Shown one piece after another: positions 4,783-44,683 of a stretch of 64,000 nt of DNA. Under the pieces are notes generated by a model. That model was given only the letters and a program-made list of their open reading frames with translations. It had not been told where the DNA came from and ran no database searches. The DNA is from a virus (Duplodnaviria; Caudoviricetes), in IMG/VR virus record IMGVR_UViG_3300031853_000021, positions 14,689-78,688 of that record; one strand, given 5' to 3'. The first letter of the stretch is position 1, and each line of letters begins with the position of its first letter. Position numbers and translations under genes: made by a program.

Positions 4783-6006
4783 CTACTGGTCCAGCCGCTG
4801 ATAAAATGCATTTATTTCCCTGGCGGTCCGCATCAGGTCATCTATGTGATACTTTTCAATCAGGCCGTCTGAATCCGTTTGAATGACATAGCTGTTATAT
4901 GAGATAATCTTCCGCGCTCTATCTCGCCGCAGCGTGCCTGTTTCTGTCAGCTCCCTGTATCCTCTAATGAATTGTCTTCTTGCCCTCCGGAAGACGCGCC
5001 TGCGGATCGTGATGTGCGTCCTGCTTATCCTGTATCCCGCCATGTCCAGCATCGGAACGCCGCGCTGCGCTTTTCCCGGAAGGCTTCGCCGTCGCTTTTC
5101 TTCTTCGATTGTCAGGATCTTGCTGATTCCGGATGTCGTCTTCAGTTCAATCCCCATTTTCTCCCGGAAGTATTTATCCAGATGCTTCGTCGCCCGTTTC
5201 ATCCCTTTTATGGATCTGGACATCAGCGCGAAGTCATCCATGAAGGTGACGGTGCGGATCACGTACGGGATCTTCTTCCCGCGCCGCGTGGTTCCCTGTG
5301 CATACAGGTCGCGGATCGCGTAGGACATCGCGAAATTGAACAGCCAGGCATCGATGTACCCGCCGATGATCAGATGCCCGTCCGGCGCGATCCGTCCCAG
5401 ATATTCCAGCAGGACGATCGCGGCCTTCGCTTTCGGGATCTCCTTCTTCAGGATGTCCACGCAGACCTGATACTTCAGCGTCGCGTATGCGTGGACGACG
5501 TCCGTCTTCTGGATGTACCTGACGCCGACCGTCTCCTTCAGAAGGTATCTGTGCGCCTGATCCTTCAGCAGCGTCTGACCGCGTCCCGGAATGCTGGCGT
5601 GCTGCGTCGGCAGAAGCCGCGCGTTGATCAGCGGTTCGATCATCAGCTTTTCGATGTGTCCGATCAGCTGATGCAGGATGGACAACAGTGCGATGTCCCG
5701 TGTCTTCCCTGTCATGCCGTCCGGACGCTGGCGGATCGTCGGCGGCTCCATGTCGTCCGGTTCGATCCCGTATTCGACCAGATCTTCCACGACGCCGTAC
5801 AGCATCAGCCCGATCGAATGGATCGCTTCTTCCTTCACACGTCTGGATCCGGACAGATCGTCGATCAGGATTTCCGTCCTTCCGATTCCGGCGTACTTCT
5901 CGATGAATACCAGAATGTCGCGGTGCTTCCATTTGCTTTTGAAACATTCTTCGACTGCTTCTTCGCATAGCTTCAGGGACAGCTTCCTGTATCTCTTCGT
6001 GTGCAT
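4783..6006 (-). CDS. DGR reverse transcriptase, left copy (407 aa)
   Basis: RT motifs GKTRDI, QHASIPGRG, KTDV, IIGGYIDAW, TFMDDF, LDMAGY; adjacent to the TR/VR pair. Confidence 0.92.
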   Translation of the reverse strand: MHTKRYRKLSLKLCEEAVEECFKSKWKHRDILVFIEKYAGIGRTEILIDDLSGSRRVKEEAIHSIGLMLYGVVEDLVEYGIEPDDMEPPTIRQRPDGMTGKTRDIALLSILHQLIGHIEKLMIEPLINARLLPTQHASIPGRGQTLLKDQAHRYLLKETVGVRYIQKTDVVHAYATLKYQVCVDILKKEIPKAKAAIVLLEYLGRIAPDGHLIIGGYIDAWLFNFAMSYAIRDLYAQGTTRRGKKIPYVIRTVTFMDDFALMSRSIKGMKRATKHLDKYFREKMGIELKTTSGISKILTIEEEKRRRSLPGKAQRGVPMLDMAGYRISRTHITIRRRVFRRARRQFIRGYRELTETGTLRRDRARKIISYNSYVIQTDSDGLIEKYHIDDLMRTAREINAFYQRLDQ

Positions 6007-6197
6007 AATTCTTTATTTTGTGAAGCGGCGTTCGGTTGCGGTCTGACCTTAAAGCAGATCCGGCCTTGTTACTACTTGCCGCACGCGCAGCCCACAGCTG
6101 CGTGTTCCCCTTTCGAAGATTCCGGTTTTACTGATTTTTGCTTGCGCATGGATATGCAGACGCACATCAGCAGACTTTCGCCTGCCTTCATGAAAAT

Positions 6198-6341
6198 AAG
6201 TCGCGGACGGCTGTTCCAGTTCGCGTTACCGGGCGTGTTGTTGCCATTCTCGCACGCCAGCCCGGCATTCGCCCCGTTGTTCAAGTTCGCGAACCGCCAC
6301 GGGCAGCGAACCCCGGCGGAGCCGGTACCGTTGAAGGCCGA
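6198..6341 (-). ncRNA. DGR template repeat (TR), copy 1
   Basis: 144-bp match to 6443-6586; 11 AAC/AAT codons and 27 adenines on the sense strand; lies outside the target gene. Confidence 0.95.
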
Positions 6342-6379
6342 TCCCGCGCCTGCATACCCTGTTTGTTTATAGTTACATC

Positions 6380-6415
6380 AGGGGACTTCCCCCTCTGGAC
6401 GTCTTACGACGTCCA
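6380..6415 (-). promoter_or_regulatory. Tandem hairpins downstream of VR (DGR target-recognition element)
   Basis: TGGACGTC-GTAA-GACGTCCA (8-bp stem, 4-nt loop holding the TAA stop) followed by AGGGG-AAGT-CCCCT. Confidence 0.75.
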
Positions 6416-8113
6416 TTCACCCCGCTTTTTACCCGCTCCACAAAGCCGCGGACGGCTGCGCCAGCTCGCGTTACCGGGCGCGTTGTGGCCATACTCGCAC
6501 GCCAGCCCGGCAAGCGCCCCGCTGTCCAAGGACGCGAACCGCCACCGGCAGCGAACCCCGGCGGAGCCGGGACCGCTGAAGGCCGACTTGAAGTAGGTCG
6601 TCGCTGATCCGCCGACCTCTTCCGGGAACAGGACGCCCTTCTTTGTCTTCATGAAGGACTTCACATAGTTCCAGCCGGATTTCATTCCTTCGTACAGCAG
6701 GCCAGTGTCTTCGTAGTTCGATGTCACGGATCCCGCCAGATTCTGACTGTCGCGGCATTCGTAGATCGAATAATCCCAATCAGACACAGCGTTCGCCGTG
6801 ACGGTATAAAGCGGATCCAGGCCGACCGCATATGCGCCGTCCAGGACTTCCACGCCAGCCACACGAAGCGGCGACGTTCCATCCGTCAGCCCGTGCGGGC
6901 ATCCGTCCTTCCTTCCCGGAAGAAGTTCTGTCGCGCCTGAATGCCACGGCATCGTCGAAATGTATGTCGTCGCTGTCGTGGTGAATGCGCTTTCCGTCTC
7001 TATGCCGACCGCTGCCAGTTCGTCGCCGTCGATCGTGACGGTTTCGATGGAACTGATCTTGACCAGATCCAGAATGTTCCGCATGTGTGCCTGTCCTCTG
7101 TCCTTGTTCGTGGACGATCCCATGTCGCCGATTGACACGGTCGAACCGACGATCAGGTTCGCGGCCTGCGTCGTCGACAGGATCACGCGCTTCACATTTT
7201 CTTCTGCCTTCGCTACCTGGTACTGTCTGTCGTAGCTGATGCAGCCGTTCGCGATGTTGCTGTTTTCCAGATCGAAGTGCCGCAGCTGCCACATCCGCAG
7301 GATCCATCTTGTATCGCAGTCATTCCACAGTCCTTCATAGATCGTCATCTTCCGCGCCGCTGTGATGCCTGCGGTCGCGCTGGCGAAGTTGTACGGCCTG
7401 ATGCCTGCGCCGGATGTCAGTGCGCCGCTGCTGTTCAGTCCGCCGGGGAATGAAGGATGCCATGTCAGCGCCCGCTTCGTTCCGTCCGGTGCGACATCCC
7501 CGGCGTCCGGATAGAATCCCGCGCCTTTGGTCGTCCTGAAGCTGATGAAATTGAATGAACCGTCGTTCCATTCCTTGATCCACAATGCCAGCGCGAACGT
7601 CCAGACGGGCGCGTCTTCGCCTGTGATGTCGAAGCCGTCTTCGCCTTCGAAGTATGTGATGTTCATGGTTCCATCTTCCAGGGACATCGCATTCGCCCGG
7701 ATGTACCATGTCATCGGATCTTCGTCCGCCCAATCTTCGACGGCGGCATCGGATGCCGTGCACAGCTGCGCGGCGCTCTTTCCTTCCAGATCGTCCAGCG
7801 GCGTCATCGCCGTGTTTCCGGATACTGCTGCATCATAGCTTCGCAGCGTGTACGCCTTGCTGTTCCACGCCTGCGCCGCTGCTTTTGCGAATCTTTCAAG
7901 GATCTTATATTTGCTTGTCTCTCCTGCTGCCGCTGCGCGCGGATAGAATTCCCAGAAGACGCGCGTGGTGTTCGTTCCGTCCAGGACGCTTTTGCACGCC
8001 GCGTCAAGGACAGCCGCATCAGATGACCCGCCGTTCAGCGCGATCGATTCCAGCGCGGCGGCGATCCGTTCGTGCTGTGTCCACGAAGGGAAAATCAGAT
8101 CCATGTCTGCCAT
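6404..8113 (-). CDS. DGR target protein, putative receptor-binding tail protein with C-terminal CLec-fold variable region
   Basis: VR encodes SAFSGPGSAGVRCRWRFASLDSGALAGLACEYGHNAPGNASWRSRPRL at the C-terminus; follows baseplate genes. Confidence 0.88.
   Translation of the reverse strand: MADMDLIFPSWTQHERIAAALESIALNGGSSDAAVLDAACKSVLDGTNTTRVFWEFYPRAAAAGETSKYKILERFAKAAAQAWNSKAYTLRSYDAAVSGNTAMTPLDDLEGKSAAQLCTASDAAVEDWADEDPMTWYIRANAMSLEDGTMNITYFEGEDGFDITGEDAPVWTFALALWIKEWNDGSFNFISFRTTKGAGFYPDAGDVAPDGTKRALTWHPSFPGGLNSSGALTSGAGIRPYNFASATAGITAARKMTIYEGLWNDCDTRWILRMWQLRHFDLENSNIANGCISYDRQYQVAKAEENVKRVILSTTQAANLIVGSTVSIGDMGSSTNKDRGQAHMRNILDLVKISSIETVTIDGDELAAVGIETESAFTTTATTYISTMPWHSGATELLPGRKDGCPHGLTDGTSPLRVAGVEVLDGAYAVGLDPLYTVTANAVSDWDYSIYECRDSQNLAGSVTSNYEDTGLLYEGMKSGWNYVKSFMKTKKGVLFPEEVGGSATTYFKSAFSGPGSAGVRCRWRFASLDSGALAGLACEYGHNAPGNASWRSRPRLCGAGKKRGEWTS
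6443..6586 (-). repeat. DGR variable repeat (VR), copy 1
   Basis: 16 mismatches to TR, 15 at TR adenines. Confidence 0.95.
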
Positions 8114-8128
8114 TTTCTTGTTCCTCCT

Positions 8129-8935
8129 TTATGCTGTGATCTTTGTCAGTGACATGTGCGGGACGCCCCGCTGCGCGTAGATCGCATACGCATATTTCAC
8201 ATCGTTGTCGCTGTCGTAGATGTACGACGCTTCATTGATCTGGCTTGCGATCTCCACGGCTTCGTTCGCCTTATTCAGGACGATCGTCGTGTTCTCCTGC
8301 CGCGTGTTCTCCGCTGTGACGCGTCCGTTCTCTGCGGTCACGCGGGCGTTCTCTGCTTCGACGCGGGCGTTCTCTGCGGTTACGCGGGCGTTCTCTGCGG
8401 TCACGCGGGCGTTCTCCGCATTTGCGCGGCTTGTCTCTGCGCTGACGCGCCTGTTCTCTGCCGTCTTTCTGGCGTTCTCTGCGGTCACGCGGGCGGCTTC
8501 CGCTTCCGCGTATGCCTTCATGGTCGCGTCGAACAGTGACATTTCGTCGCCGGATATGATGGCGTCTTCATCCTTGACGCACGGTTCGATCTCGATTTCG
8601 AACGTGCAGGACGTGATGACTTCGGTCATGTCCCCGGACTTCACTTCGATTTCTGCCAGTGCTGTCCCCGCTGCCGCCAGCGTCTGCGACGTCAGTTCCA
8701 TCGTGACGACAGACCCGGAAAACGTGCACGGCGAATATGCCCGCTTCAGATCCGGCTTCTTGATGTAGGCCGTGACGTTCGATCCGGGCGGGATCTCATA
8801 TTCTTCGCCCTGATTCAGCAGCTGGATTTCGACGTACCGCGTCGCCCTGTCGTGCTGCTTCGCCGATACCTGATACTGCTTCGTAGATCCTGACATCTCG
8901 ATCTTCAGTCTTTTGATGACCCTGTTCAGGCTCAT
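8129..8935 (-). CDS. BppU-like baseplate upper protein with heptad coiled coil
   Basis: AKQHDRATRYVEIQL...YIKKPD...AGTALAEIEV; ARVTAEN heptads. Confidence 0.75.
   Translation of the reverse strand: MSLNRVIKRLKIEMSGSTKQYQVSAKQHDRATRYVEIQLLNQGEEYEIPPGSNVTAYIKKPDLKRAYSPCTFSGSVVTMELTSQTLAAAGTALAEIEVKSGDMTEVITSCTFEIEIEPCVKDEDAIISGDEMSLFDATMKAYAEAEAARVTAENARKTAENRRVSAETSRANAENARVTAENARVTAENARVEAENARVTAENGRVTAENTRQENTTIVLNKANEAVEIASQINEASYIYDSDNDVKYAYAIYAQRGVPHMSLTKITA
8306..8494. repeat. Nine degenerate 21-bp tandem repeats encoding (A/R)RVTAEN heptads
   Basis: GTTCTCTGCGGTCACGCGGGC units on the plus strand; same array at +38677. Confidence 0.9.
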
Positions 8936-8951
8936 GTCTGCATCCTCCTTT

Positions 8952-10460
8952 CTACAGTCCTAATTTTTCTATGATCTGCGCGATCGTGACTGTCTCCCCG
9001 TTCGGCTTCTCAAATTCGCACGTCCCCCGGAAGATCGCATTGAATGCGAAGTCCGCATAGTTTTCGCGCGTCGCTTTCGACCCGAAGGCCACGCCGCGCC
9101 CTCCATGCAGGAAGTGCATCAGATAGACCGCCGTCGACACGAAGTCGATCACCGTCACGGTGTTGAACTGGTCTTTCAGGACATACTTCACATCGTAGGA
9201 AAATTCCGTGTCCAGATCTCCGCCGCAGACTGCCGTCTTCCCTTCGCCCGGACTGATCGTCTTCGGTGTTCCGTATGTCCAGTTGCTTGTCAGCTTGTAG
9301 GCCACGGTCAGCGTCAGGCTGTTCTTCCCGTTGCACGTGCTGTATGTCGTGTCGGTCATCGCCAAAAAATAGACGCCTTCGTTCTCGATGGATCCGTCAG
9401 ATCCGCAGCGCATCGAATCGACCGACAGCGTCGGCGGATCATATTCGACGACCGTGATCCGGGCGGACTTCTCTGCCGTCCTGCCCCGCTGATCCTTGAC
9501 CGTCACCGTGATCGTCTTCACCCCGTAGTCTTCGAAGATCTTCGACGTCGGAAGTGACGTCGGCGTGCCCGTGTATGTCTTGTCGTCCACTTCCATCGCG
9601 ACAGATACGATCGCGGATCCGTATGACGGCGTCACGCTCACGGCGGACAGGCCGACGTTCGACTGTTCTTCCACGAACATGTTCCACGATGCCGGGACGC
9701 GCCCGGCCTTGTCTGCGACCGTGACCGAATTGATCACCGGCACGCAGTCGTCCGGAACTGTCACTTTGATCTGTTTCGTGATAGTCTGATATACCTGTGT
9801 CCCGAAGATGCTTTCGATCTTCAGTGTCATCCACCCGAACGTCGAATCCGGAAGTTCTTCGTTCCACAGCTTCGGGATCTTGTAGCTGTTCGTGATCCGC
9901 GTCGCCTTCGCAGCCAGTTTCTTCGTGTTGCTGTATGTCTTATTCTTTAGCGTCCACGTGAACCTGTATGTCGCATCCGTCGTCAGTTTAATCGATGCGG
10001 AACTGTCGCCGCTTTCTACGTTCAGCGGGACTGATTCGTTTCCCGTGATCTCGATGTCTGACGCGCCCGGATCCCATTCGTAATATGTCAGGCGTCCCAG
10101 ATCATAGAATGACCGAACGCATTCAGACGGATCCGAAACAGGATTCGCTCCGTACTTTATCGTGAAGAATGGTTTGTTGATTACCAGCTTTGTCCCGATG
10201 TTCAGCGTGGCCTTCTGGACATATGTGACCCCCAGCACAGTCTTCTTTGCTTTGATCGTCCATCTGTACTGTTTCCCGTCGATGATTGTTACTGTAGGGA
10301 AGTCATCCGGCCCTACTGCCAGCGCCCACATATCATCGGGGACGTTCAGCGCGATCGATGTGATCGTCGTTGTGTCGCCTGATACGCTCCCCGACGCTGT
10401 CGCCGCTGCCTGAAATACCGAATCGGCTGTGATCGGAACGCTGAATGTTTTATTTGCCAT
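8952..10460 (-). CDS. Minor tail structural protein (DUF859-like)
   Basis: Beta-rich; TVTVKDQRGR...ITVVEYDPPTL...RC motif; GGRGVAFG; lies between tail spike and BppU genes. Confidence 0.65.
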   Translation of the reverse strand: MANKTFSVPITADSVFQAAATASGSVSGDTTTITSIALNVPDDMWALAVGPDDFPTVTIIDGKQYRWTIKAKKTVLGVTYVQKATLNIGTKLVINKPFFTIKYGANPVSDPSECVRSFYDLGRLTYYEWDPGASDIEITGNESVPLNVESGDSSASIKLTTDATYRFTWTLKNKTYSNTKKLAAKATRITNSYKIPKLWNEELPDSTFGWMTLKIESIFGTQVYQTITKQIKVTVPDDCVPVINSVTVADKAGRVPASWNMFVEEQSNVGLSAVSVTPSYGSAIVSVAMEVDDKTYTGTPTSLPTSKIFEDYGVKTITVTVKDQRGRTAEKSARITVVEYDPPTLSVDSMRCGSDGSIENEGVYFLAMTDTTYSTCNGKNSLTLTVAYKLTSNWTYGTPKTISPGEGKTAVCGGDLDTEFSYDVKYVLKDQFNTVTVIDFVSTAVYLMHFLHGGRGVAFGSKATRENYADFAFNAIFRGTCEFEKPNGETVTIAQIIEKLGL

Positions 10461-12189
10461 CTGCTGCCACCTCCATCCGGAAGACGCCGCTGTCGTCGAT
10501 CAGCTGCTGATATACAGCCGGTCGTGCCGCTGCCTTCCTGATCTTCGTTTGCAGGCGCAGCGTGTTCGCCGTCGCCGGTTCTTCTTCCTGCGCTTCCCTC
10601 CATTTGACACCCATCCCGTACTGTGTGGATATGAAGTCGAAGTATCCGCCGTCCTCTGCCGCTCCGACAGACCATCGCCTGACAGCTTCGACGTTCAGGA
10701 TGTGCAGCTTGTCGTACTGGATGTATGCGACCGGCGATCCGTCCTGTCTGAATTCCAGCCTTGTGTTCGACAGCATCGTGGAAAACGGCATCACGCCGCC
10801 GTCCTGCTTCTTGCCGATTTCAAGGCCGTCGTCAGTGTAATGGAAGTATGTTTCGTTCTCCTGTTTGAACGATTCCAGATCTTCGCCCTGCGCTGTGACC
10901 GTCTCTTCCATCGACCGGATCGAAATGTTCAAGTCGATGGATGTCTGTTCGATCATGGTCTGATATTCGTTCGTCATCTGCTCCACGGTCTTGTTGTTGG
11001 CATCGTCCGCGTATAGCTTCGCGGCTTCCTCTGCCGCCGATGCCATATCCCGCGATTCTGTCCGGATCGCCTGGACGGATGTCGCGATCTTTTCTTCCGA
11101 AGATGTGATCGCCGCCTGGACTTCTTCGGTCGTCCAGTACCCGCCCCGCAGGATCCGCTTCGTCCTCGATTCAGACACGGACACGGCATCCGACAGTGTC
11201 TTTTCCTGCGTCTCCGTCTGGATCTGTTCGAACGTCTTCACGACGCTGGACAGTTCGCAAGTGTTCTTCTGCGGATCCTTCGGATATTCCGTCATCTTCA
11301 CGATCCGCTGCTTCGTCCGCGTGTTCTCCGTCTTCGATACGATCCACACTGTATCGCCGATGTCGTAATCCAGAAGGCCGTATTCTTCAGACTGTGCCGC
11401 AAGATCTGCGACGTCGGCAGTGTAGGCCGTGTACGGTCTGGACGCTGTTTCCAGCTTCGCCCGCGCGTCCTCGATCAGATTTTCCGTGATAGTGTACCGT
11501 TCATCTTTCCAGATCTTCGGCACGATCTTGTCTGTGTACTGATGATTGTCGATGTACGGCACGCCGATCATGATTTCCGGCGTGATGCCATCCTTGCCGA
11601 TCGGATAGATCCGCGTGTAGAAGTCGTACGTGTTCGACTTCACTGTCAGCTTCCGAAGGTTCAGCCCCTCCATGAAGTAGGCGCCGCGATCCGTTCCTAT
11701 GTGCTCATATAGATGGATCACCTTCCGGATGCTGTCTATGCTGCATTCGCACATGTACGTCTTCAGGACGTCCTGAAGGACATCCCACGCCGTGCACGTG
11801 TCTTCTATGTCGACCGTCCGGCGCTTTGTGATCGTGCACGTGCCGACCGTCCATCCGGTTCCCTCGAATGCGAATTCAAGGCAAGCGCGCGCCGTCTGTG
11901 TCTCCGATGCGAATCCATATGTGAATTCCTGCTGTTCCAGTTCCTCGATGTTCAGCTTCGCGACGTACCTGTTCTTCGTCGCCCCTGTCTCGATCTCCTT
12001 CAGGACGTATTCGTCTTCCTTCGTCCGGATGTAGTTTTCCGCTGCCAGTGCCGCGATCGCCGCGCCGTTCTTCGGATATGAAAACGACAGTTCCTTGTCC
12101 CCGGACGACAGCGTCTTTTCGATCTTCAGATCGTCCATCATGTCGATCGCCGCGATCCGCTTGTGCAGCGCGTCGTATATCTGGATCAT
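10450..12189 (-). CDS. Tail spike / prophage tail endopeptidase-family (Tal-like) protein
   Basis: FYTRIYPIGKDG, DIGDTV, follows Dit; homologue at 49076-50839. Confidence 0.75.
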   Translation of the reverse strand: MIQIYDALHKRIAAIDMMDDLKIEKTLSSGDKELSFSYPKNGAAIAALAAENYIRTKEDEYVLKEIETGATKNRYVAKLNIEELEQQEFTYGFASETQTARACLEFAFEGTGWTVGTCTITKRRTVDIEDTCTAWDVLQDVLKTYMCECSIDSIRKVIHLYEHIGTDRGAYFMEGLNLRKLTVKSNTYDFYTRIYPIGKDGITPEIMIGVPYIDNHQYTDKIVPKIWKDERYTITENLIEDARAKLETASRPYTAYTADVADLAAQSEEYGLLDYDIGDTVWIVSKTENTRTKQRIVKMTEYPKDPQKNTCELSSVVKTFEQIQTETQEKTLSDAVSVSESRTKRILRGGYWTTEEVQAAITSSEEKIATSVQAIRTESRDMASAAEEAAKLYADDANNKTVEQMTNEYQTMIEQTSIDLNISIRSMEETVTAQGEDLESFKQENETYFHYTDDGLEIGKKQDGGVMPFSTMLSNTRLEFRQDGSPVAYIQYDKLHILNVEAVRRWSVGAAEDGGYFDFISTQYGMGVKWREAQEEEPATANTLRLQTKIRKAAARPAVYQQLIDDSGVFRMEVAADGK

Positions 12190-12202
12190 CCCGCTGCCCT
12201 CC

Positions 12203-12901: not shown

Positions 12902-12914
12902 GTTTCATCCCTCC

Positions 12915-16451: not shown

Positions 16452-16469
16452 GCTGTCCCGCTCCTTCCC

Positions 16470-34274: not shown

Positions 34275-34303
34275 TTGACTTTTCGGGCATTTTCCGCTAT
34301 CAT
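34275..34303 (+). promoter_or_regulatory. Sigma-A-type promoter antisense to the early operon
   Basis: TTGACT-17bp-TATCAT. Confidence 0.7.
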
Positions 34304-34309
34304 GAATGT

Positions 34310-34531: not shown

Positions 34532-34549
34532 CCTTCCCGCTCCTTTCCG

Positions 34550-35780: not shown

Positions 35781-35794
35781 GCGTCCCGCTCCCT

Positions 35795-36480: not shown

Positions 36481-36493
36481 GCCCGTCCCTCCT

Positions 36494-36871: not shown

Positions 36872-36920
36872 CCTTTCATGATTCAGCCTGCGCCGCTGCC
36901 GACGCAGGCCGTGTCGATCG

Positions 36921-37082
36921 TCATGCAGTCTTCACTTTTAGCTGATCGCGCATGATCTGCATTCCGATCATGATTCCTTTGACTTCTCTTTTCTCTTCTG
37001 CGGTCAGTCTCTTCAGCAGTTCCACGAACTCCTTCACATCGGCCTGCTGGTTCTCGACTTCCCTGTTCTTTTCTGCTGTCAT
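36921..37082 (-). CDS. Small early protein (53 aa), absent from ORF track
   Basis: MTAEKNREVENQQADVKEFVELLKRLTAEEKREVKGIMIGM...; AAAGGAG RBS. Confidence 0.6.
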   Translation of the reverse strand: MTAEKNREVENQQADVKEFVELLKRLTAEEKREVKGIMIGMQIMRDQLKVKTA

Positions 37083-37099
37083 CTCCTTCACTCCTTTCT

Positions 37100-37372
37100 T
37101 TAGATCGTTGCGATGATCATCACCAGCAGCATCACGATCGCCAATCCCATGACGATGTGTTCCATCACTGTCAGGCTGTCCGATTCCATGATGTCGTCAT
37201 CGTCATCGATCAGCATGTTCGCCGCTTCGTTGATCTCTTCTGTTACGACCGCGATTTCTTCCGGCGTCAGCTGCATGGATTCAAACACGATCGCGCATCT
37301 GTTCTTCGCAGTGTCGATCCGGTCGCGGTCTGTCATCGGCTGCGGCTCCTGCCGCGCTTCCAGAACTGTCAT
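37100..37372 (-). CDS. First early gene: acidic protein with C-terminal TM helix
   Basis: AAAGGAAGG RBS; DDDDD run; hydrophobic C-terminus. Confidence 0.55.
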   Translation of the reverse strand: MTVLEARQEPQPMTDRDRIDTAKNRCAIVFESMQLTPEEIAVVTEEINEAANMLIDDDDDIMESDSLTVMEHIVMGLAIVMLLVMIIATI

Positions 37373-37411
37373 CTGATCACCTTCCTTTCCTTTCCTGAAT
37401 CGAATTTTCAT

Positions 37412-37488
37412 TTGATCCTGTCAATATAATACTTGATTGAATCAAGTTTGTCAACCACTTCAGCATATAAAACTTGACTGAATCAATT
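37412..37488. promoter_or_regulatory. Three operator-like TTGA-N5-TCAA sites
   Basis: 37412-37424; perfect 17-bp palindrome ACTTGATTGAATCAAGT at 37431-37447; 37472-37488. Confidence 0.75.
37426..37454 (-). promoter_or_regulatory. Early (lytic) promoter
   Basis: TTGACA-17bp-TATTAT; the perfect operator covers the spacer. Confidence 0.8.
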
Positions 37489-37502
37489 TTTTAATGTAGG
37501 AT
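37474..37502 (+). promoter_or_regulatory. Repressor promoter
   Basis: TTGACT-17bp-TAGGAT; an operator overlaps the -35. Confidence 0.6.
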
Positions 37503-37527
37503 ATAATTCAGGAAGGAGGAACGGCGC

Positions 37528-38007
37528 ATGAACAGCAGATTAAAAGACATTCGGAAGGCTCTTCGCCTTACGCAAAAAGAATTCGCTGCACGATTAGGAA
37601 TCACCGACAGCGGGATTTCCAGACTTGAAAAAGGACAGAACCAGCTGACGGATCAGCTGATCCGCGCGATCTGCCGCGAATACAAAGTGAACTATGAATA
37701 TCTGAAGAACGGCATCGGCGAAATGTTTTCGGATGTGCCGCAGACAGTCGTCGATGAACTGTGTGAACAGTACGATCTGGATGACTTCGATCGGATCATG
37801 CTTCAGGAATATCTGAAGATGGACGAAGCGTCCCGGAATGTTCTGAAGACTTACATCCGGAAGATCTGCGGGCAGATCTCCGAAGCCGAAGACACGCAGG
37901 CGAAGATCGACGCTGAAGTCGAAGCGTACCGGCAGGAACTGGAACTTGAAGCAAGTCAGGCGGAAAAATCATCAGCTTCCGACACGCCTGCCGAAAATAT
38001 GGCATAA
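37528..38007 (+). CDS. XRE-family HTH phage repressor (CI-like)
   Basis: RLKDIRKALRLTQKEFAARLGITDSGISRLEKG; divergent from early operon; AGGAGG RBS. Confidence 0.9.
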   Translation: MNSRLKDIRKALRLTQKEFAARLGITDSGISRLEKGQNQLTDQLIRAICREYKVNYEYLKNGIGEMFSDVPQTVVDELCEQYDLDDFDRIMLQEYLKMDEASRNVLKTYIRKICGQISEAEDTQAKIDAEVEAYRQELELEASQAEKSSASDTPAENMA

Positions 38008-38033
38008 AAATAAGCCCGTCAAGATGACGGGCT
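38005..38033 (-). terminator. Hairpin with U-tract on the minus strand
   Basis: AGCCCGTCA-AGA-TGACGGGCT preceded by AAAAATA on the plus strand. Confidence 0.55.
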
Positions 38034-38039
38034 GGAAGG

Positions 38040-38378
38040 ATGGACACTATGGCATTATTTGAAAGTAAAGAAAGCAAAGAAGAAAAGAAAGCGCGGAAGA
38101 TCGCCGAAGCTGAACAGAAGCAGGCCGAAAAAGACTTCGCACTTCTTCAGAAGTACGGCCTTACAGGTCTTCAGGATCCTGAAGACATCCAGTCCGTGCG
38201 GAACATTGTCAGCGAACTGCGCGGAACCGGCCTGATGGAATTAGGCATCACGTTCGGCGGCGGCAACGACCGCGACATCCAGAAGAATCAGCTGTACTAC
38301 CAGCGCGCGATCCTTGAACAGAACTTCATCATCATTCGTCAGCTTGACAGGATTTCGAAGCTGCTGTCCGATCGCTGA
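38040..38378 (+). CDS. Lysogeny-module hypothetical protein
   Basis: Between repressor and integrase, co-oriented. Confidence 0.7.
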   Translation: MDTMALFESKESKEEKKARKIAEAEQKQAEKDFALLQKYGLTGLQDPEDIQSVRNIVSELRGTGLMELGITFGGGNDRDIQKNQLYYQRAILEQNFIIIRQLDRISKLLSDR

Positions 38379-38387
38379 TCGTAAAGC

Positions 38388-38470
38388 AAAAATAAAAGGA
38401 TCAGCTGTTCCCGCAGCTGATCCCCTGATTTCCCTATCCGCACCGCTTCGTGGTAGAAATAGGCTTCGCA
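38388..38470 (-). ncRNA. Candidate antisense sRNA (about 80 nt) upstream of integrase
   Basis: Extended -10 TG-A-TAGAAT at 38477-38485; first hairpin; terminator GGATCAGCTG/CAGCTGATCC + TTTTATTTTT. Confidence 0.5.
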
Positions 38471-38533
38471 CCTCTCATTCTATCACGGAACCGTGCGACT
38501 GCATAGGTTTCTTTTTTATACTCTTTTTTAGGA

Positions 38534-39940
38534 ATGGAAGGTGATCTGATGTATATGACACAGTCAGCCCCGGAACTGTACGGCGTCCGCGTCGTCAAAT
38601 ACATCCGGTGCAGCCACGACGATCAGGTTCTTCACGGCGACACGCTGGAAGCGCAGAACGAAATACTGGACGACTTCATCGCCCGGAATCACTGCGTCCT
38701 GATCGACACGTTCATCGACGAAGCACTGACCGCCCGGAAGAAATACACGAACCGGAAGGAATTCGTCCGGCTCCTTGACGGCGTCCGGCGGCATGACTTC
38801 GACGTGATCCTGTTCACGAAGCTGGATCGCTGGTTCAGGAATATCGGCGACTATCACAAAATACAGGAAGTTCTGGAAGCGAACGGCGTCCAATGGAAGG
38901 CCGTGACGGAATCGTACGACACGACCACGACGAACGGCAGGCTGCACATCAACATTCGTCTGTCCGTGGCACAGGATGAATGTGATCGTGACAGCGACCG
39001 CATCAAGGACGTGTTCGCGTTCAAGCTGAAGAACAAGTCCTTCGTGACCGGATCCGTCCCGCGCGGTCTGATGCTCGACGCCGAAAAACATGTCGTCCCC
39101 GATCCGGAATGGAAGCAGTTCGCGCTGGATGCCTTCGACATGCTGGAAGTGACCGGATCCGTCCGGAAGTCCCTTTTCGCTCTACAGGAACGGTACAGCT
39201 GCATCTATTCGTACAGCAGCTTCATCCGGATGCTGAAGAATCCGCTGTACAAGGGAATGTATCGTGACGATCCGCAGTTCTGCGATCCTCTGATAGATCC
39301 GGATCGCTTCGACCACATCCAGACGCTGATCAAGAAAAACGTGCGCCAGCGCCGAAGCGGAACGCAGTTCATCTTCAGCGGTCTTTTGACCTGTGACGTC
39401 TGCGGTCGCTCTATCGCAGGATATACGACAGGCCGTCGCCGGAAGGATGGATCCATTACCCGGAAGCCGCGGTACAGATGCACAGCGTGGAACATGAACC
39501 ACAGCTGCACGAATAACAAGTCGTGGATGGAAGAAGTCCTTGAAGATCGCGTCCTGGCTCTTGTTCGCCCGTCCCTCTCCGCATACATCGCGGACTATGA
39601 TGTGGAAGACGGCGGCGGTCGCGGCAGGAATCCGGCAGCTGATGCCGCCCGGATCCGGACGAAGCTGAAGAAGCTGTACGACCTGTTCATGGACGATCTG
39701 ATCGACCGCGATCTGTACAAGTCCGAATACGATCAGCTGAATGCGCAGCTTCAGGAAGCGCTGACTGCTGCCGATCATCCCCGGAAGGACGTCAGCGAAC
39801 TGAAGAAGTTCCTGTCGCAGCCGTGGGAAGATGTGTACAAGGACTTTTCCGTGCAAGAAAAAAATGCGTTCTGGAAGTCCTTCGTGGACACCATGCGCAT
39901 TCGTGAAGACGGCAGCATCGCCGACATTATTTTTTTATGA
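38534..39940 (+). CDS. Large serine recombinase (integrase)
   Basis: YIRCS catalytic motif, TKLDRWFRN, recombinase domain, zinc ribbon CDVCG...YRC...C, coiled coil. Confidence 0.93.
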   Translation: MEGDLMYMTQSAPELYGVRVVKYIRCSHDDQVLHGDTLEAQNEILDDFIARNHCVLIDTFIDEALTARKKYTNRKEFVRLLDGVRRHDFDVILFTKLDRWFRNIGDYHKIQEVLEANGVQWKAVTESYDTTTTNGRLHINIRLSVAQDECDRDSDRIKDVFAFKLKNKSFVTGSVPRGLMLDAEKHVVPDPEWKQFALDAFDMLEVTGSVRKSLFALQERYSCIYSYSSFIRMLKNPLYKGMYRDDPQFCDPLIDPDRFDHIQTLIKKNVRQRRSGTQFIFSGLLTCDVCGRSIAGYTTGRRRKDGSITRKPRYRCTAWNMNHSCTNNKSWMEEVLEDRVLALVRPSLSAYIADYDVEDGGGRGRNPAADAARIRTKLKKLYDLFMDDLIDRDLYKSEYDQLNAQLQEALTAADHPRKDVSELKKFLSQPWEDVYKDFSVQEKNAFWKSFVDTMRIREDGSIADIIFL

Positions 39941-40001: not shown

Positions 40002-40457
40002 TTATTCCGGGATGAACTCCACGTCGCCCGGCCTGCCGCTGACGAAATATCCGTCCGCTGTCTGGTACAGGACGCCGTCCGGCGTTGTGAACTTCTTCAC
40101 AGCCTTCTTCACATCGAAGGCCGTCACGCCGCAGATCGCGCTGTCATCGAAGGAAGGTTCGCGGCGCAGACGCAGCTTCCCGTCGAATACGCGGCGGATC
40201 GTTCCCTTCACGTCCTCTTCCTTCACTTCGGCCTGCTCCTGCTGCTGGTCGCCCTCCTGCTCCTGCACGGCTTCGTCTGCCGCTTCCGCCTGCTCCTCCT
40301 GCTGCTGATCCTCTTCCGGATCCGCGACAGGCTCCGGATAGATCTGCGCAGCATCTTCATCATACACGTTCAGGCCGTTCTTGTCTGCTGCCTTCTTCGC
40401 GCCTTCCAGCGTCTTGTATTCCTTCGCACTCTCGAAGTCTGTTCCTGCATAATACAT
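40002..40457 (-). CDS. Conserved lysis-module protein, putative non-catalytic cell-wall-binding protein
   Basis: Homologue of 2766-3266. Confidence 0.6.
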   Translation of the reverse strand: MYYAGTDFESAKEYKTLEGAKKAADKNGLNVYDEDAAQIYPEPVADPEEDQQQEEQAEAADEAVQEQEGDQQQEQAEVKEEDVKGTIRRVFDGKLRLRREPSFDDSAICGVTAFDVKKAVKKFTTPDGVLYQTADGYFVSGRPGDVEFIPE

Positions 40458-40485
40458 TCGATCATCTCCTTCCCGTTCTTCCTGA

Positions 40486-41943
40486 TCATACCTTCTTCAG
40501 GTATGCGGAAGAACTGAATCCTGTATATGTCACGCCATTCAGTTCGAACTGAATGTACAGCCACTTCACGCCGTTCGCCGTGCTGTAGTATCCATAGCAG
40601 TGAACCTTCGTTCCGGCAGGCATACAGCACAGCGCCTTCTTGTTTGTTCCGGCATCGTTTCGACAGTACAGATCCGCCGTCGCTGTATATGCCCCGGGCA
40701 GTCTGGCGTCCTTCCCGCGCGCGTAACACGTGGATGTGACTTCCTTCTTTCCGGATGTCTGCTTCGCCGGTTCCTGCTTCTTCGCGGTCGTGCCGTTCAG
40801 GATCTCGTTCACCCTCTTCTGCACTGCTGCCGGATCGTAGCCCTTCGCCTTCAGGTTCGCCACTCTGTCGGATCCGTTGCCCCACAGTCCAGTGATGACT
40901 TCGCGGGCGATCGTGTCGACGCTCTTTCCGGCCTTGCGCTGATCGCTTTCCGCCTTCACTGTGTTGTCTGTATAGTGCGGCGTGATGAATCCGCGGATGA
41001 ATCTTCCGTTGATGCTGACCGTGCGCTTCTTCACGCTGTCGGAATAGTTTCCTTCAGTGACGACGAAGTACCCGGCGGATCTGTTCACATAGGTCACTGT
41101 GCCGATGTGATCCGGCGCGCCGTGGTTGTCTCCTGATCCGGAATCCTCCCAGTCGTACAGAACAGCGTCGCCGATGTTCGGAACGTAGTCGTCCGCTTCC
41201 TGCCAGCATCCCATCTTCTTCGCTTCTTCGATGATGTAATAGCAGCTGATTTCGACGGGCATCACTGCCGTGTATCCCAGCTTCTTCGCGATCGCCGACC
41301 ATGTAGCCGCGCACCACGGCCACGAATACAGCATCTTTGTCCCGCGCGGGAACGGTTCTTTGCTATTGTAAATGTCGATGATCACCTTGAAGGATCCGTC
41401 CGATTCCTTCAGGCCGACCCATGCTTCCGCCTGATCAGCGACTTTCTGTCTTGAATATCCCACTTTGACATCTTCCTTTCCTGCGTTTTTGTCGTACTGC
41501 GTCAGGTTGTACTGCCTGACCAGCTTCATCAGATTGTCGACGTACGTGCTGGATGTCGCATAGCCGTCGGCCTTGATGTTTTCCAGGTACTGCTGCGGAT
41601 CCGTGACGCCGCGCAGATTCCTGTATCTGTCCAGCTGAATGAATTCGAAGTATCCGCGCACGCCCTCTTCCATGCTGTCATACACGCGGAAGTTGTCGCG
41701 GATCTGCGTGTGCACGCCCGGCGTGTACTCTTCGCTGGTCTTCATGTTCACCGGCTTCCCTGTCCACCTTGTTCCGCACTTCAGTCCGAAATAGTTATGA
41801 TACAGGGAAGCAAGTTTCGATTCGCCCCATCCGGATTCAAGGATCGCCTGCGCGATGATCGGCGAATGCACCATGATCCCGTACACGTAGGCGTACTTCT
41901 CGACATATCCCGCGATCCGCTCGATGAACTCTGTCTTCTTCAT
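40486..41943 (-). CDS. Endolysin: GH73 glucosaminidase + CHAP + Cpl-7 + SH3-like domain
   Basis: AQAILESGWG...NYFGLK...GYAT; WCAATWS...DHIG...EGN; IAREVITGLWGNG; C-terminal YCRNDAG...WLYI. Confidence 0.88.
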   Translation of the reverse strand: MKKTEFIERIAGYVEKYAYVYGIMVHSPIIAQAILESGWGESKLASLYHNYFGLKCGTRWTGKPVNMKTSEEYTPGVHTQIRDNFRVYDSMEEGVRGYFEFIQLDRYRNLRGVTDPQQYLENIKADGYATSSTYVDNLMKLVRQYNLTQYDKNAGKEDVKVGYSRQKVADQAEAWVGLKESDGSFKVIIDIYNSKEPFPRGTKMLYSWPWCAATWSAIAKKLGYTAVMPVEISCYYIIEEAKKMGCWQEADDYVPNIGDAVLYDWEDSGSGDNHGAPDHIGTVTYVNRSAGYFVVTEGNYSDSVKKRTVSINGRFIRGFITPHYTDNTVKAESDQRKAGKSVDTIAREVITGLWGNGSDRVANLKAKGYDPAAVQKRVNEILNGTTAKKQEPAKQTSGKKEVTSTCYARGKDARLPGAYTATADLYCRNDAGTNKKALCCMPAGTKVHCYGYYSTANGVKWLYIQFELNGVTYTGFSSSAYLKKV

Positions 41944-41961
41944 GCCTGCTTCCCTCCTTCC

Positions 41962-42213
41962 TTAGTTCGGTTCGTCGTAAAGCATCGCCCGGTCAGAATC
42001 TGACACGCCCTTCGTTGTGGGATCCACGGTCACGCCCAGGATGACCAGCACAGCGAAGACTGCTTCGACGATCTGGATCAGCTGCGTGCCGACCGCTTCC
42101 GTCTCGATCTGGAAGCCGAACAGCGCCGCCACAGCTTTGATCAGCGTCAGAACGGCGGGGATGATCGCCAGCCAGAACACTTTATTCTTGATTCTCACTT
42201 TCCAGTTGATCAT
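41962..42213 (-). CDS. Phage holin (phiLC3-like)
   Basis: Homologue of 3299-3550. Confidence 0.85.
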   Translation of the reverse strand: MINWKVRIKNKVFWLAIIPAVLTLIKAVAALFGFQIETEAVGTQLIQIVEAVFAVLVILGVTVDPTTKGVSDSDRAMLYDEPN

Positions 42214-42277
42214 GTTGTTTTCTCCTTCCTGGCATACGGAAGGACGCCTTCACGCCCTTCCGCGCTCGATTCTTTGT

Positions 42278-42607
42278 TTAGTGTGTTTCGTGTGTCACCG
42301 CATCCGGCGACAGCTGAAGAAGTGCTTCCATCCTGTCCACACGTTTGTGCAGGGATTTCAGGCTTTCTTCGTTCCTGATAGTCCGTTCGTTCATCTTCTC
42401 CATTTCAAGTTTCTGCGACTTGATGTCCTGCTTCACTTCCAGCAGTGTGTTCTGAACGACTTCCAGTTTCATCATGACGGCGGATTCCTGCTTTCCTGCT
42501 TCCTCCGCATCCTTGCGATCCGTTTTCCCGTTCGCGCGGATTCCGCTGTAGATCGAAAATGCAAGCGCCAGAACAGAAAGTAGAACCGTAGCCCACTGTG
42601 GTGTCAT
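42278..42607 (-). CDS. Membrane-anchored coiled-coil lysis-module protein (XhlA-like)
   Basis: Homologue of 3611-3940. Confidence 0.6.
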   Translation of the reverse strand: MTPQWATVLLSVLALAFSIYSGIRANGKTDRKDAEEAGKQESAVMMKLEVVQNTLLEVKQDIKSQKLEMEKMNERTIRNEESLKSLHKRVDRMEALLQLSPDAVTHETH

Positions 42608-42611
42608 TCCG

Positions 42612-42863
42612 TCATAACCTCCTTAGTTTGTATTCTATTCTGTCCAGCTGCCTGTCCGCGTCCTCCCGCGCTGCGCGCAGTTCTTCCCGGACAGCTTCTT
42701 CCATTTTCGTCCGCTCTATCATTTCAGCCTGTTTCCGGATGATCTGCGCCATCGTCTCCGTGACTGTGCACATCATGTCGACGACTTCCAGCAGGCCGCC
42801 GGATCCACCTTCCCACGGTGGCGCGTCCCTCGCTTCGTTCATGCGTCCCCGTCCTTTCTTCAC
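42612..42863 (-). CDS. Conserved hypothetical phage protein
   Basis: Homologue of 3944-4195. Confidence 0.7.
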   Translation of the reverse strand: MKKGRGRMNEARDAPPWEGGSGGLLEVVDMMCTVTETMAQIIRKQAEMIERTKMEEAVREELRAAREDADRQLDRIEYKLRRL

Positions 42864-42997
42864 TCTTCATCAATGATCAGTTCTTCCATTCCGCTTTCGA
42901 TCAGGATTTCTTTGACCTGGTCTTTCAGCAGACGCGGAACCTGTGCATAGGTCTTCTTTCCCAGAATGATCTTCTGTGCCCACAGCATAGCCATCAT
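42860..42997 (-). CDS. Small CD1375/XkdX-like protein
   Basis: MMAMLWAQKIILGKKTYAQVP. Confidence 0.7.
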   Translation of the reverse strand: MMAMLWAQKIILGKKTYAQVPRLLKDQVKEILIESGMEELIIDEE

Positions 42998-43056
42998 CGT
43001 GTCGCCCTCCTTTCCGTAAAGTATTTGCAATAACGCCCGCCGGATGATCTCCCCGA

Positions 43057-43440
43057 TCATTCGTATACCACTTCCGACATCTCCAAGATGCAATCTTCCA
43101 TCATGGCGATCTGCTCTTTCTGTTCGCTGACGATCTTCGTCAGCTGCGCCCGTGTCATCGCTTCTTCTTCAGGCGCTGGCGGATCCGGATCCGGATGTAC
43201 ATCATCCACCCCGTACTGCCACCATGTCGCGAAGTCCTCTTCGATCTCCTGCGCCGTCGCGGCCTTGCCGTCCGGCATGAAGAACTGGACTTCGTCAAAA
43301 CGGTACATCGTCCGATCCGGCTGATCCTCCTGTTTGTACGGCTGGATATTGTCCGCAAGACGGACGAAGATCTTCCCGCCCGGCAGATGTTCCAGCGTCA
43401 CCTTCTGCGGCATCTCTGCCGCGTCGCTCTTGTAATACAT
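43057..43440 (-). CDS. Hypothetical protein, XkdW-like/tail-fibre chaperone position
   Basis: Homologue of 4380-4763. Confidence 0.6.
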   Translation of the reverse strand: MYYKSDAAEMPQKVTLEHLPGGKIFVRLADNIQPYKQEDQPDRTMYRFDEVQFFMPDGKAATAQEIEEDFATWWQYGVDDVHPDPDPPAPEEEAMTRAQLTKIVSEQKEQIAMMEDCILEMSEVVYE

Positions 43441-44683
43441 GCAGCCACTCCTTTCTTTTCTGCTGATCCAGCCGCTGATAGAGTCCCTGAACCTGTTCAG
43501 CCATCTTGATCAGTTCTTCCACGTGGTACTTTTCCTTCAGCCCGTGCGCGTCGGTCTGCTGCACGTAGCTGTTGTACGATATGATTTTCTGTGCACGATC
43601 CCGCCGCAGTGTTCCCGTTTTCTTCAGCTCTCTGTATCCTCTGATCAGCTGCCTTCGTGCCCTCCGGAAGACGCGCCTGCGGATCGTGATGTGCGTCCTG
43701 CTGATCCTGTATCCCGCCATGTCCAGCATCGGGACGCCACGCTGCGCTTTTCCCGGAAGGCTCCGTCGTCGCTTCTCTTCTTCGATCGTCAGTATCTTAC
43801 TGATTCCGGATGTCGTCTTCAGTTCGATTCCCATTTCCTTCCGGAAGTATTTGTCCAGGCGCTTCGTCGCCCGCTTCAGTCCTTTGACGGATCCAGACAT
43901 CAGCGCGAAGTCGTCCATGAAGGTGACGACGCGGATCACGTACGGGATCTTCTTCCCGCGCCGTGTGGTTCCCTGTGCGTACAGGTCGCGGATCGCGTAG
44001 GACATCGCGAAATTGAACAGCCAGGCGTCGATGTACCCGCCGATGATCAGATGCCCGTCCGGTGCGATCCGTCCCAGATATTCCAGCAGGGCGATCGCGG
44101 CCTTCGCCTTCGGGATCTCCTTCTTCAGGATGTCCACGCAGACCTGATACTTCAGCGTCGCGTATGCGTGGACGACGTCCGTCTTCTGGATGTACCTGAC
44201 GCCGACCGTCTCCTTCAGAAGGTATCTGTGCGCCTGATCCTTCAGCAGCGTCTGACCGCGTCCCGGAATGCTGGCGTGCTGCGTCGGCAGAAGCCGCGCG
44301 TTGATCAGCGGTTCGATCATCAGCTTTTCGATGTGTCCGATCAGCTGATGCAGGATGGACAACAGTGCGATGTCCCGTGTCTTCCCTGTCATGCCGTCCG
44401 GACGCTGGCGGATCGTCGGCGGCTCCATGTCGTCCGGTTCGATCCCGTATTCGACCAGATCTTCCACGACGCCGTACAGCATCAGCCCGATCGAATGGAT
44501 CGCTTCTTCCTTCACACGTCTGGATCCGGACAGATCGTCGATCAGGATTTCCGTCCTTCCGATTCCGGCGTACTTCTCGATGAATACCAGAATGTCGCGG
44601 TGCTTCCATTTGCTTTTGAAACATTCTTCGACTGCTTCTTCGCATAGCTTCAGGGACAGCTTCCTGTATCTCTTCGTGTGCAT
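43295..44683 (-). CDS. DGR reverse transcriptase, right copy (462 aa, 55-aa read-through extension)
   Basis: Same motifs as the left copy; TAG replaced by CAG at 43460-43462. Confidence 0.88.
   Translation of the reverse strand: MHTKRYRKLSLKLCEEAVEECFKSKWKHRDILVFIEKYAGIGRTEILIDDLSGSRRVKEEAIHSIGLMLYGVVEDLVEYGIEPDDMEPPTIRQRPDGMTGKTRDIALLSILHQLIGHIEKLMIEPLINARLLPTQHASIPGRGQTLLKDQAHRYLLKETVGVRYIQKTDVVHAYATLKYQVCVDILKKEIPKAKAAIALLEYLGRIAPDGHLIIGGYIDAWLFNFAMSYAIRDLYAQGTTRRGKKIPYVIRVVTFMDDFALMSGSVKGLKRATKRLDKYFRKEMGIELKTTSGISKILTIEEEKRRRSLPGKAQRGVPMLDMAGYRISRTHITIRRRVFRRARRQLIRGYRELKKTGTLRRDRAQKIISYNSYVQQTDAHGLKEKYHVEELIKMAEQVQGLYQRLDQQKRKEWLHVLQERRGRDAAEGDAGTSAGREDLRPSCGQYPAVQTGGSAGSDDVPF

Follow-up and report, generated by a model that had tools for sequence, protein, structure and literature searches.

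Composition of the record

The window analysed here is a stretch of 64,000 nt from IMGVR_UViG_3300031853_000021 (record positions 14,689 to 78,688), and all coordinates are positions in this window. It contains two copies of a DGR cassette, S, each followed by a structural and packaging module, and two different lysis regions (Table 1). The source record is a single virus contig of 78,688 bp, two units long, rated by IMG/VR as 100% complete and 'linear'. The units lie head to tail: X, counted from repeat start to repeat start (5432-44108), has 38,677 bp, and Y, the rest of the contig, has 39,999 bp (about 40.0 kb) between its probable cos ends. No host DNA was found anywhere in the 78,688 bp. 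A first-pass annotation had taken the window for a prophage region; in fact it is 64 kb of one virus contig without host DNA.

Table 1. Features of the window, with strand and the basis of assignment
Feature	Position	Strand	Remarks
End of the Y loop	1..5431	-	Lysis genes, small ORFs, 3' 0.65 kb of RT ('a1'); Pfam
GH25 lysin	3-896	-	Y lysis region; Pfam
CW_7 + metallo-beta-lactamase-fold (MBL) protein	922-2739	-	Y lysis region; Pfam
166-aa holin-region ORF	2766-3266	-	Y lysis region
DGR RT gene, copy 1	4783-6006	-	5' half in S; 3' 0.65 kb ('a1') outside
Cassette S, copy 1	5432..8689	-	Exact identity to 44109-47366; Pfam RVT_1, BppU_N; PHROGs
TR	6198-6341	-	S copy 1
DGR target tail protein	6404-8113	-	phrog_17147 and phrog_5302 (pair given for cassette S)
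VR	6443-6586	-	S copy 1
BppU-like baseplate protein gene	8129-8935	-	C-terminal two thirds within S; Pfam BppU_N
X structural/packaging module (struct-L)	8690..25230	-	Tail/baseplate genes (DUF859 protein, Prophage_tail) to TerS; Pfam, PHROGs
Tape measure	12915-16451	-	struct-L; Pfam, PHROGs
Major head	19415-20632	-	struct-L; Pfam, PHROGs
Portal	21366-22838	-	struct-L; Pfam, PHROGs
TerL	22845-24587	-	struct-L; Pfam, PHROGs
TerS	24606-25130	-	struct-L; Pfam, PHROGs
Probable cos site of X	25231..25242	.	TCCACAGAATAG; homologous to the 12-nt terminal repeat of the whole contig
X early/replication genes	25243 to 37411	-	Pfam; 25243..39940 colinear with G002 at 97%
HTH repressor	37528-38007	+	Pfam
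Large serine recombinase (int-L)	38534-39940	+	Pfam
Palindrome of X	39942-39997	.	22-nt arms, 86% complementary, 12-nt spacer
X lysis region and RT 3' end ('a2')	40002..44108	-	Also small ORFs; Pfam, alignment
151-aa holin-region ORF	40002-40457	-	X lysis region
GH73 + CW_7 lysin	40486-41943	-	X lysis region; Pfam
RT ORF, copy 2	43295-44683	-	462 aa
Cassette S, copy 2	44109..47366	-	Identical to copy 1, VR included
Y structural/packaging module (struct-R)	47367..64000	-	Extends as far as the right end of the contig, a probable cos end

According to Pfam and PHROGs, the unit 5432-44108 carries one of each module, as the first-pass annotation had claimed. Its structural module struct-L is 96-99% identical to contigs G002, G003 and G004, and only 66-86% identical (83-85% in another comparison) to struct-R, the counterpart in Y; struct-R is 95-97% identical to contigs G001 and G005. 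The integrase, palindrome and lysis genes of X adjoin in the order noted before (38534-39940, 39942-39997, 40002-41943). The palindrome separates the convergent integrase and lysis genes of X and may be a terminator, an attP or both; a simple terminator and promoter scan of this junction called nothing, the 22-nt arms being present all the same. The a2 region is 97-100% identical to G002, G004, L003 and L007. On the Y side, the first 5431 nt of the window are contiguous with the Y integrase located upstream of the window (L001) and are 96-99% identical to G001 and L014.

For most of their length X and Y diverge by about 15-35%; the identity of their early genes is patchy (65-76%). The contig carries two unrelated serine integrases, 21% identical, each adjoining its own lysis genes, and thus the attP-side junctions are intact. 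The lysins also differ, GH73 in X and GH25/MBL in Y. X and Y are best read as distinct temperate siphophages, probably cos-type and probably both with a Clostridia-type host, that co-occurred in one metagenome. The record strings their genomes, which differ but are related and come from gut or rumen, together via a common 3.26-kb stretch.

The first 12 nt of the whole contig are the same as the last 12 nt (TCCACGGATGAG). This terminal repeat is probably a cos-type packaging site. The X-type contig G003 starts exactly at the base of the X 12-nt site that is homologous to the last base of the record, and the Y-type contig G005 starts at the base homologous to the same last base. Three independent contigs thus end at one base, about 100 bp upstream of TerS. 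Contig G001 reads through this junction in Y, where the 12 nt occur once. Taken together, the common end base and this read-through suggest that the ends are the real cos-like terminus of a genome of roughly 40 kb, and not of one of 79 kb.

The shared DGR cassette

The two copies of S form an exact direct repeat (5432-8689 and 44109-47366; 3,258 bp, 100% identity, period 38,677 bp). The next-longest exact word common to both copies has 83 bp. These data confirm the earlier observation of a direct repeat at the DGR cassette, and also the claim that the join sits there and not at an integrase site. The RT gene extends beyond the repeat in both copies; in copy 2, CAG stands in place of the stop TAG, so that the ORF reaches 462 aa. 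The other edge of S falls within the BppU-like gene, and one exchange boundary lies inside the BppU N-terminal domain.

As read from its sequence, the cassette is a DGR: it has an RT gene and an adenine-directed TR/VR pair, and the target gene carries the VR at its 3' end. Mismatches between TR and VR fall on TR adenines in 15 cases out of 16. The match of the RT to Pfam RVT_1 (E=2.5e-6, 27.8 bits) is under the Pfam cut-off of 29.6 bits. In all six other samples compared (6/6), the VR differs at 15-24 of 144 positions from the VR of both copies considered here; TR adenines account for 14-22 of these 15-24 differences, and the TR itself does not vary. The DGR is visibly active between samples. 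Within this contig the two VR copies are identical, as would be expected, given the diversity between samples, if one graph edge had been written twice.

Collapse of variant paths by the assembler was considered as the sole cause of the perfect identity of S and rejected, since isolated SNPs 17-48 nt apart were kept up to the left edge. It follows that dense differences were not collapsed, but within S sparse ones might have been lost. X and Y are therefore best described as near-identical within S, 100% identity being not proven.

The cassette resembles the DGRs of the Bordetella phage BPP-1 type, by which a tail receptor-binding protein is diversified: it combines an RT and a TR with a tail-protein gene whose 3' end carries the VR. 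The adenine-specific changes from TR to VR, with the VR varying between samples at TR-A positions, are a further point of similarity. It differs in that the interval from the target gene to the TR showed no recognisable Avd-like ORF, in its host, which is probably a member of Clostridia, and in that the cassette together with a part of BppU is common to two otherwise diverged phages. A PDB sequence search with the DGR target protein gave no match. Among bacterial genome contigs, the target protein found only distant prophages with 71-72% amino-acid identity, in Fusicatenibacter, Hominifimenecus and 'Eubacteriaceae bacterium' genomes; we consider this as a host hint only. A search of the bacterial genome contigs with the MBL lysis protein of Y found nothing.

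Module linkage in related contigs

The closest relative of X is IMGVR_UViG_3300021426_000036 (G002) from another metagenome. It has 39,110 bp (38,998 bp in the unit comparison), a 112-bp DTR, 100% completeness by CheckV and one copy of S, and it covers 97.0% of X at 97.3% identity. This complete monomer supports the earlier reading of the 38,677-bp unit as an entire phage genome. Taken together, the phage contigs G002 and G001 cover 97% of X and Y. The INPHARED search produced one distant fragment only (MT835925, 74% identity), hence there is no cultured relative there. The scan of metagenome contigs yielded only a contig already known from IMG/VR.

SNP typing was applied to contigs spanning S with a length of at most one unit. 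Only two arrangements were observed, those of X and Y. G002, G003 and G004 clearly combine struct-L with a2, and L012 has struct-L with a weaker a2 call (9:4). L008 is of the Y type, with struct-R (46:1) and a1 (27:5) in short flanks, and it is the sole contig behind the Y monomer across S. Both pairings proposed by the first-pass annotation are thus found: the right lysis and RT 3' region with its GH73 lysin goes with the left structural genes in G002, G003 and G004, which come from three other metagenomes, and the left one goes with the right structural genes in L008, within its short flanks only. Every close relative of the GH73 lysin is of the X type, and the close relatives of the MBL protein are all found beside Y sequence. 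Among the contigs seen, none has int-L next to the GH25/MBL lysis genes or the Y integrase next to the GH73 lysin.

The linkage of a1, S and struct-L was found only in two contigs longer than one unit, the source record and G001. The latter (49,462 bp) consists of the struct-L tail, S, the entire Y loop and 504 bp of S again. Seven contigs (G001, G005, L008, L012, L014, L003, L007) end at, just inside or just beyond the edges of S, or in the VR.

The same pairing had initially been derived from a small sample of synonymous codons. The quoted codon strings are indeed present (43826, 5149, 22734, 61490); as evidence for pairing they are not significant. GAA/GAG use does differ between the left and right structural sets (0.74 vs 0.56, Fisher p=7e-8). 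The RT 3' and lysis flanks a1 and a2 show no difference in any of the three codon pairs (GAA 0.69 vs 0.71; p>0.19 throughout), and being alike, they cannot be paired with the head genes by such a sample. Codon usage, suggested earlier as a check, had no power to assign the flanks.

Origin of the join

The contig is two units long with S as an exact repeat, an X monomer exists elsewhere, and the ends are cos-like. These observations suggest that X was threaded into Y at a graph edge: the long-range join of X and Y was probably made by the metagenome assembler and not by recombination in a cell. S would be a single assembly-graph edge common to both phages. Y would run through this edge as a linear path ending in cos tips, X would form a loop leaving and re-entering it, and the assembler would have written Y-left, S, the X loop, S and Y-right. 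The cassette itself may have come to be common to X and Y through ordinary homologous exchange when such relatives infected the same cell. The first-pass annotation had given an assembler join as its fallback, and this is the reading we favour. Its main model, Campbell integration of X into a prophage Y, is not supported, as the Y integrase still adjoins its own lysis genes, host DNA is absent, and the contig ends appear to be of the cos type.

The same model without the prophage deserves separate attention. X and Y, circular or concatemeric, could have recombined in S in a co-infected or doubly lysogenic cell, producing a heterodimer or heteroconcatemer. The layout is exactly what a single crossover in S would leave, with two direct copies around a complete unit, and S is by far the longest identical substrate, with at most 83 bp elsewhere. 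X-type and Y-type contigs occur in several metagenomes, G001 holds both types, and the linkage from X through S to Y is seen in two independent samples (the source record and G001), a result that would likewise be obtained if mixed infections often gave rise to real heteroconcatemers or recombinants. However, if the record was built from short reads, the contig itself lends this model no support, as short-read assemblers cannot phase 3.26 kb; long reads spanning 3.3 kb, if they were used, would give the join real support. Furthermore, the contig ends are probably the cos ends of a genome of roughly 40 kb, and a 78.7-kb cos-to-cos molecule of twice the unit length with an intact internal cos (25231-25242) could presumably not be packaged. 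The VR copies are identical though the DGR is active across samples, and the swapped linkage occurs in no contig of one unit length or less. We consider a real cointegrate improbable. An equally doubtful reading is that the DGR and receptor-binding module is a recurrent crossover hotspot which reshuffles head/tail and lysis/integration arms between the two lineages in nature. If true, the linkage in G001 would be the second sighting of X/Y recombination in the DGR cassette.

Two further arrangements involve the integrase/lysis junctions. The true monomers might be the units cut at these junctions, one consisting of the GH25/MBL lysis region, a1, S, struct-L, the early genes of X and int-L, and the other composed likewise, which would make G002, G003 and G004 the recombinants. 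G001 indeed has struct-L, S, a1 and the GH25/MBL lysis region, like the source contig; however, it exceeds one unit and runs on into the full struct-R set, and thus is not such a monomer. The integrase and lysis combinations that these units require are the ones never observed in the contigs seen, and there is no mechanism for joining two different attP regions, so that this possibility is very unlikely. Still less credible is a tandem dilysogen, in which related prophages were integrated side by side by their integrases and gene conversion later homogenised the cassette. It would account for head-to-tail units with an integrase at the end of each. It is contradicted by the absence of host flanks, with 97% of both units covered by phage contigs, and by record ends at a cos-like site and not at att sites. 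A common att site is also not expected for recombinases that are only 21% identical. Finally, the junction of int-L and the GH73 lysin is present in the complete DTR genome G002, read as circular, and hence is a normal attP-side junction and not an attR/attL hybrid.

An assembler join has precedents. One study discusses IMG/VR contigs that hold repeated genomes at about twice the expected length, and regards them as 'probably artifacts of metagenomic assembly' (PMC8116208). The record resembles these CheckV-type concatenations in its length (78.7 kb, compared with 39.0 kb for the complete relative), in its head-to-tail units, in the absence of host DNA and in the existence of the monomer in the same database: X is found alone as the complete DTR contig G002, and the Y-type junction is found in L008, with short flanks. 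The difference is that the units are two different phages joined via one 3.26-kb edge, and not copies. Since only about 4% of the record is exactly duplicated, a k-mer-frequency check would barely flag it. Unitigs common to mosaic phage variants have been described (PMC10104058). As in the Phables components of that study, there are two variants with one module-sized common unitig and unique unitigs elsewhere, and contigs of other samples break at the module edges. In contrast to them, the assembler wrote here one path through both variants without a break, and one variant behaves as linear, with cos tips, and the other as a loop. With Campbell-type cointegrates of plasmids or phages, formed at shared IS elements or homologous segments, the record has in common a complete circular unit between direct repeats. 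However, the recipient Y is not an integrated prophage, a cointegrate molecule is hypothetical here, and the record ends are packaging-type ends of a single-length genome. On balance, it is likely that the two-phage join is not a real genomic feature but a known type of IMG/VR assembly artefact.

A record that is rated complete in a public collection, yet consists of two genomes, misleads on genome size, gene content, host prediction and 'polylysogeny'. The underlying biology is ordinary but useful: the same DGR-diversified receptor-binding module resides on two phages with different integrases and lysins. X and Y show cleanly, in a natural setting, how a host-range module moves from one phage backbone to another, and they form a defined pair for testing recombination at the DGR cassette.

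Two phage units in one record

Compared with itself, the window shows a near-tandem duplication whose period is about 38.7 kb. Positions 5432-8689 equal 44109-47366 base for base (3,258 bp, offset 38,677), although these two copies of the shared cassette, S, are to be taken as near-identical, since the assembler could have merged sparse SNPs within S. It did not merge dense differences, as isolated SNPs are kept right up to the left edge of S. Identity between the two copies changes sharply at the right edge of S, beyond which it falls to 75-85%. On the left side it declines by degrees, from 97-98% to about 90%, until homology is lost left of approximately position 4400. Over the structural genes as a whole the copies are 83-85% identical, and no exact word longer than 83 bp is common to both copies outside S.

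The record is one virus contig of 78,688 bp, of which the window forms the last 64 kb. It consists of exactly two genome units: Y, of 39,999 bp from one probable cos end to the other (one copy of a 12-nt terminal sequence removed), and X, of 38,677 bp, located inside Y between the two S copies. The first-pass annotation described X (5432-44108) as a whole phage with exactly one of each module. Gene calls by Pfam and PHROGs match this content, and the second copy starts after the GH73 lysin.

Features of X and Y (window positions; L001, the 14.7 kb upstream of the window)
Feature	Position	Strand	Remark
GH25 lysin	3-896		
CW_7 + metallo-beta-lactamase (MBL)-fold protein	922-2739		
DGR reverse transcriptase (RT)	4783-6006		
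TR	6198-6341		
VR	6443-6586		
DGR target tail protein	6404-8113		
BppU-like protein	8129-8935		
Siphovirus tail/head/terminase set	up to 25130		
Early genes	up to ~37411		
Repressor	37528-38007		
Large serine recombinase (X)	38534-39940	+	468 aa
Palindrome	39942-39997		immediately after X recombinase
GH73 + CW_7 lysin	40486-41943		
Large serine recombinase (Y)	L001:12175-13848	+	557 aa
Palindrome	L001 13851-13891		immediately after Y recombinase
GH114-like gene	L001:13930-14679	-	

The Y-type early genes in L001 show patchy similarity (65-76% identity) to the early genes of the left copy. The large serine recombinases of X and Y are only 21% identical, despite the similarity of the structural genes. 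The Y recombinase directly adjoins the GH114-like gene and the GH25 lysin. The lysis end of Y is unusually rich, with these two genes and the CW_7/MBL-fold protein, whereas in X the corresponding position is occupied by one GH73 + CW_7 lysin alone. In the Y-type copy the RT gene stops at TAG (4783-4785). This codon is CAG in the X-type copy (43460-43462) and in all six of the relatives examined (G001, a 49,462-bp contig, and five contigs of X type), which lengthens the RT frame from 407 to 462-463 aa, so that it overlaps the next gene. The tape-measure genes contain 33-nt tandem repeats (13325-13822; 51973-52569) whose copy number differs between X and Y, and the BppU-like gene contains 21-nt (heptad) repeats (8243-8545 and 46920-47222).

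Module linkage and genome ends in related contigs

Related IMG/VR contigs were collected with five queries (RT, the MBL protein, the GH73 lysin and, from each copy, the tail protein immediately to the right of S), and their type was determined by comparison with both copies, using sliding identity and SNPs. X exists as a phage in its own right. The complete genome G002 (IMGVR_UViG_3300021426_000036; 39,110 bp, 112-bp direct terminal repeat, CheckV 100%) contains S once and is colinear with X: left-copy early genes, integrase, GH73 lysin, the RT-3' flank beside it, S and left-copy structural genes. Its coverage is 97.0% for X (identity 97.3%), as against 11% for Y. At two places in the X early region (34548-35267 and 35808-36254) it carries unrelated sequence; these differences look like small module swaps.

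The left structural genes occur together with the right-hand RT-3' region also in G003 and G004, the latter with the GH73 lysin, and in L012, where the RT-3' call is weaker (9:4). The 4,029-bp contig L008, which spans S with short flanks, has the Y-type linkage, with right structural alleles (46:1) and alleles of the RT-3' flank beside the GH25/MBL genes (27:5). Thus the earlier inference that each lysis/RT-3' region belongs with the structural genes of the opposite copy is correct, but not on its codon grounds. The codon strings quoted for it do exist. However, in counts over all ORFs the RT-3'/lysis flanks do not differ in GAA/GAG, GGA/GGG or ATC/ATT usage (all p>0.19), and the structural sets differ for GAA/GAG only.

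The first 12 nt of the record (TCCACGGATGAG) equal its last 12 nt (G000:C1:1-12 and 78677-78688). The two ends match neighbouring positions of the other copy at window 25231-25242, which lies some 100 bp upstream of TerS; the 12 nt read TCCACAGAATAG in X and TCCACGGATGAG in Y. The X-type contig G003 (21.4 kb) and the Y-type contig G005 (17.1 kb), from two other metagenomes, terminate at the homologous base, so that three independent metagenome contigs end at the same base. G001 crosses the Y junction with a single 12-nt copy. Judged from the sequence, this site is probably a physical genome end of the cos type, overlapping by 12 nt.

Origin of the join

No host DNA was found anywhere on the 78,688-bp contig. 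Integrase-mediated tandem lysogeny is excluded, as there are no host flanks and the two integrases are unrelated; moreover, the junction between the X integrase and the GH73 lysin is the same as in G002. Campbell insertion of X into a prophage Y, as initially proposed, is excluded because Y is not integrated.

The join at S could have been made by homologous recombination in a cell or by the assembler. A genuine heteroconcatemer of X and Y, or a population of recombinants, is unlikely. In its favour, the linkage of the GH25/MBL-side RT-3' flank through S to the left structural genes recurs in G001, and only there outside this record. G001, which is longer than one unit, contains 8.9 kb of left structural genes, S, the entire Y loop with the full right structural set, and then 504 bp of S, where it stops; its two S right-hand ends differ by 4.7%. 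However, the swapped linkage is absent from every compared contig of unit length or less, and the record has the fixed ends of a single-unit genome, common to two contigs of unit length or shorter (G003 and G005). Packaging from cos sites has general size limits, and for this reason a molecule of 78.7 kb running from cos to cos, twice the unit length and with a further intact cos inside it, would be unpackageable. The VR copies within the contig are also identical although VR varies between samples, as would follow from a single graph edge being output twice.

The first-pass alternative, joining of X and Y at the cassette by the assembler, is favoured by four points: the ends, the VR identity, contig breaks and precedent. 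In other samples contigs end at or near the S edges, and two of them, L003 and L007, break in or beside VR. IMG/VR contigs of about twice the expected length with repeated genomes have been called 'probably artifacts of metagenomic assembly' (PMC8116208), and module-sized unitigs common to mosaic phage variants occur in assembly graphs (PMC10104058). In the implied graph, Y would run linearly between cos tips, X would loop off the shared edge S, and the sole walk using every edge would be the observed contig. Most probably, the biological insertion of X is not real, and the main worth of the record is as a database caution.

The shared host-range module

In S, the C-terminal portion of BppU is combined with the DGR target, TR and the 5' half of RT. 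On the right the module ends sharply at 8689, within the N-terminal domain of BppU (residues 12-142). VR is located at the 3' end of the DGR target gene; TR and VR mismatch at 16 sites, of which 15 are TR adenines. In all six other samples compared (L002, L004, L005, L006, L008, L012) VR has 15-24 differences from ours over 144 positions, 14-22 of them at TR adenines, with TR invariant. Evidently, the DGR is active in natural populations.

The only genomic relatives of the DGR target (71-72% amino-acid identity) are prophages in the bacterial genome contigs L027, L028 and L029, from Fusicatenibacter faecihominis, Hominifimenecus microfluidus and a record titled 'Eubacteriaceae bacterium'. This similarity suggests gut Clostridia as the likely host group. 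X and Y are co-occurring temperate siphophages with different integration and lysis modules and one common host-range module. Their heads and tails are only about 84% identical, and the sharing of S is ordinary phage mosaicism, here on a DGR cassette.
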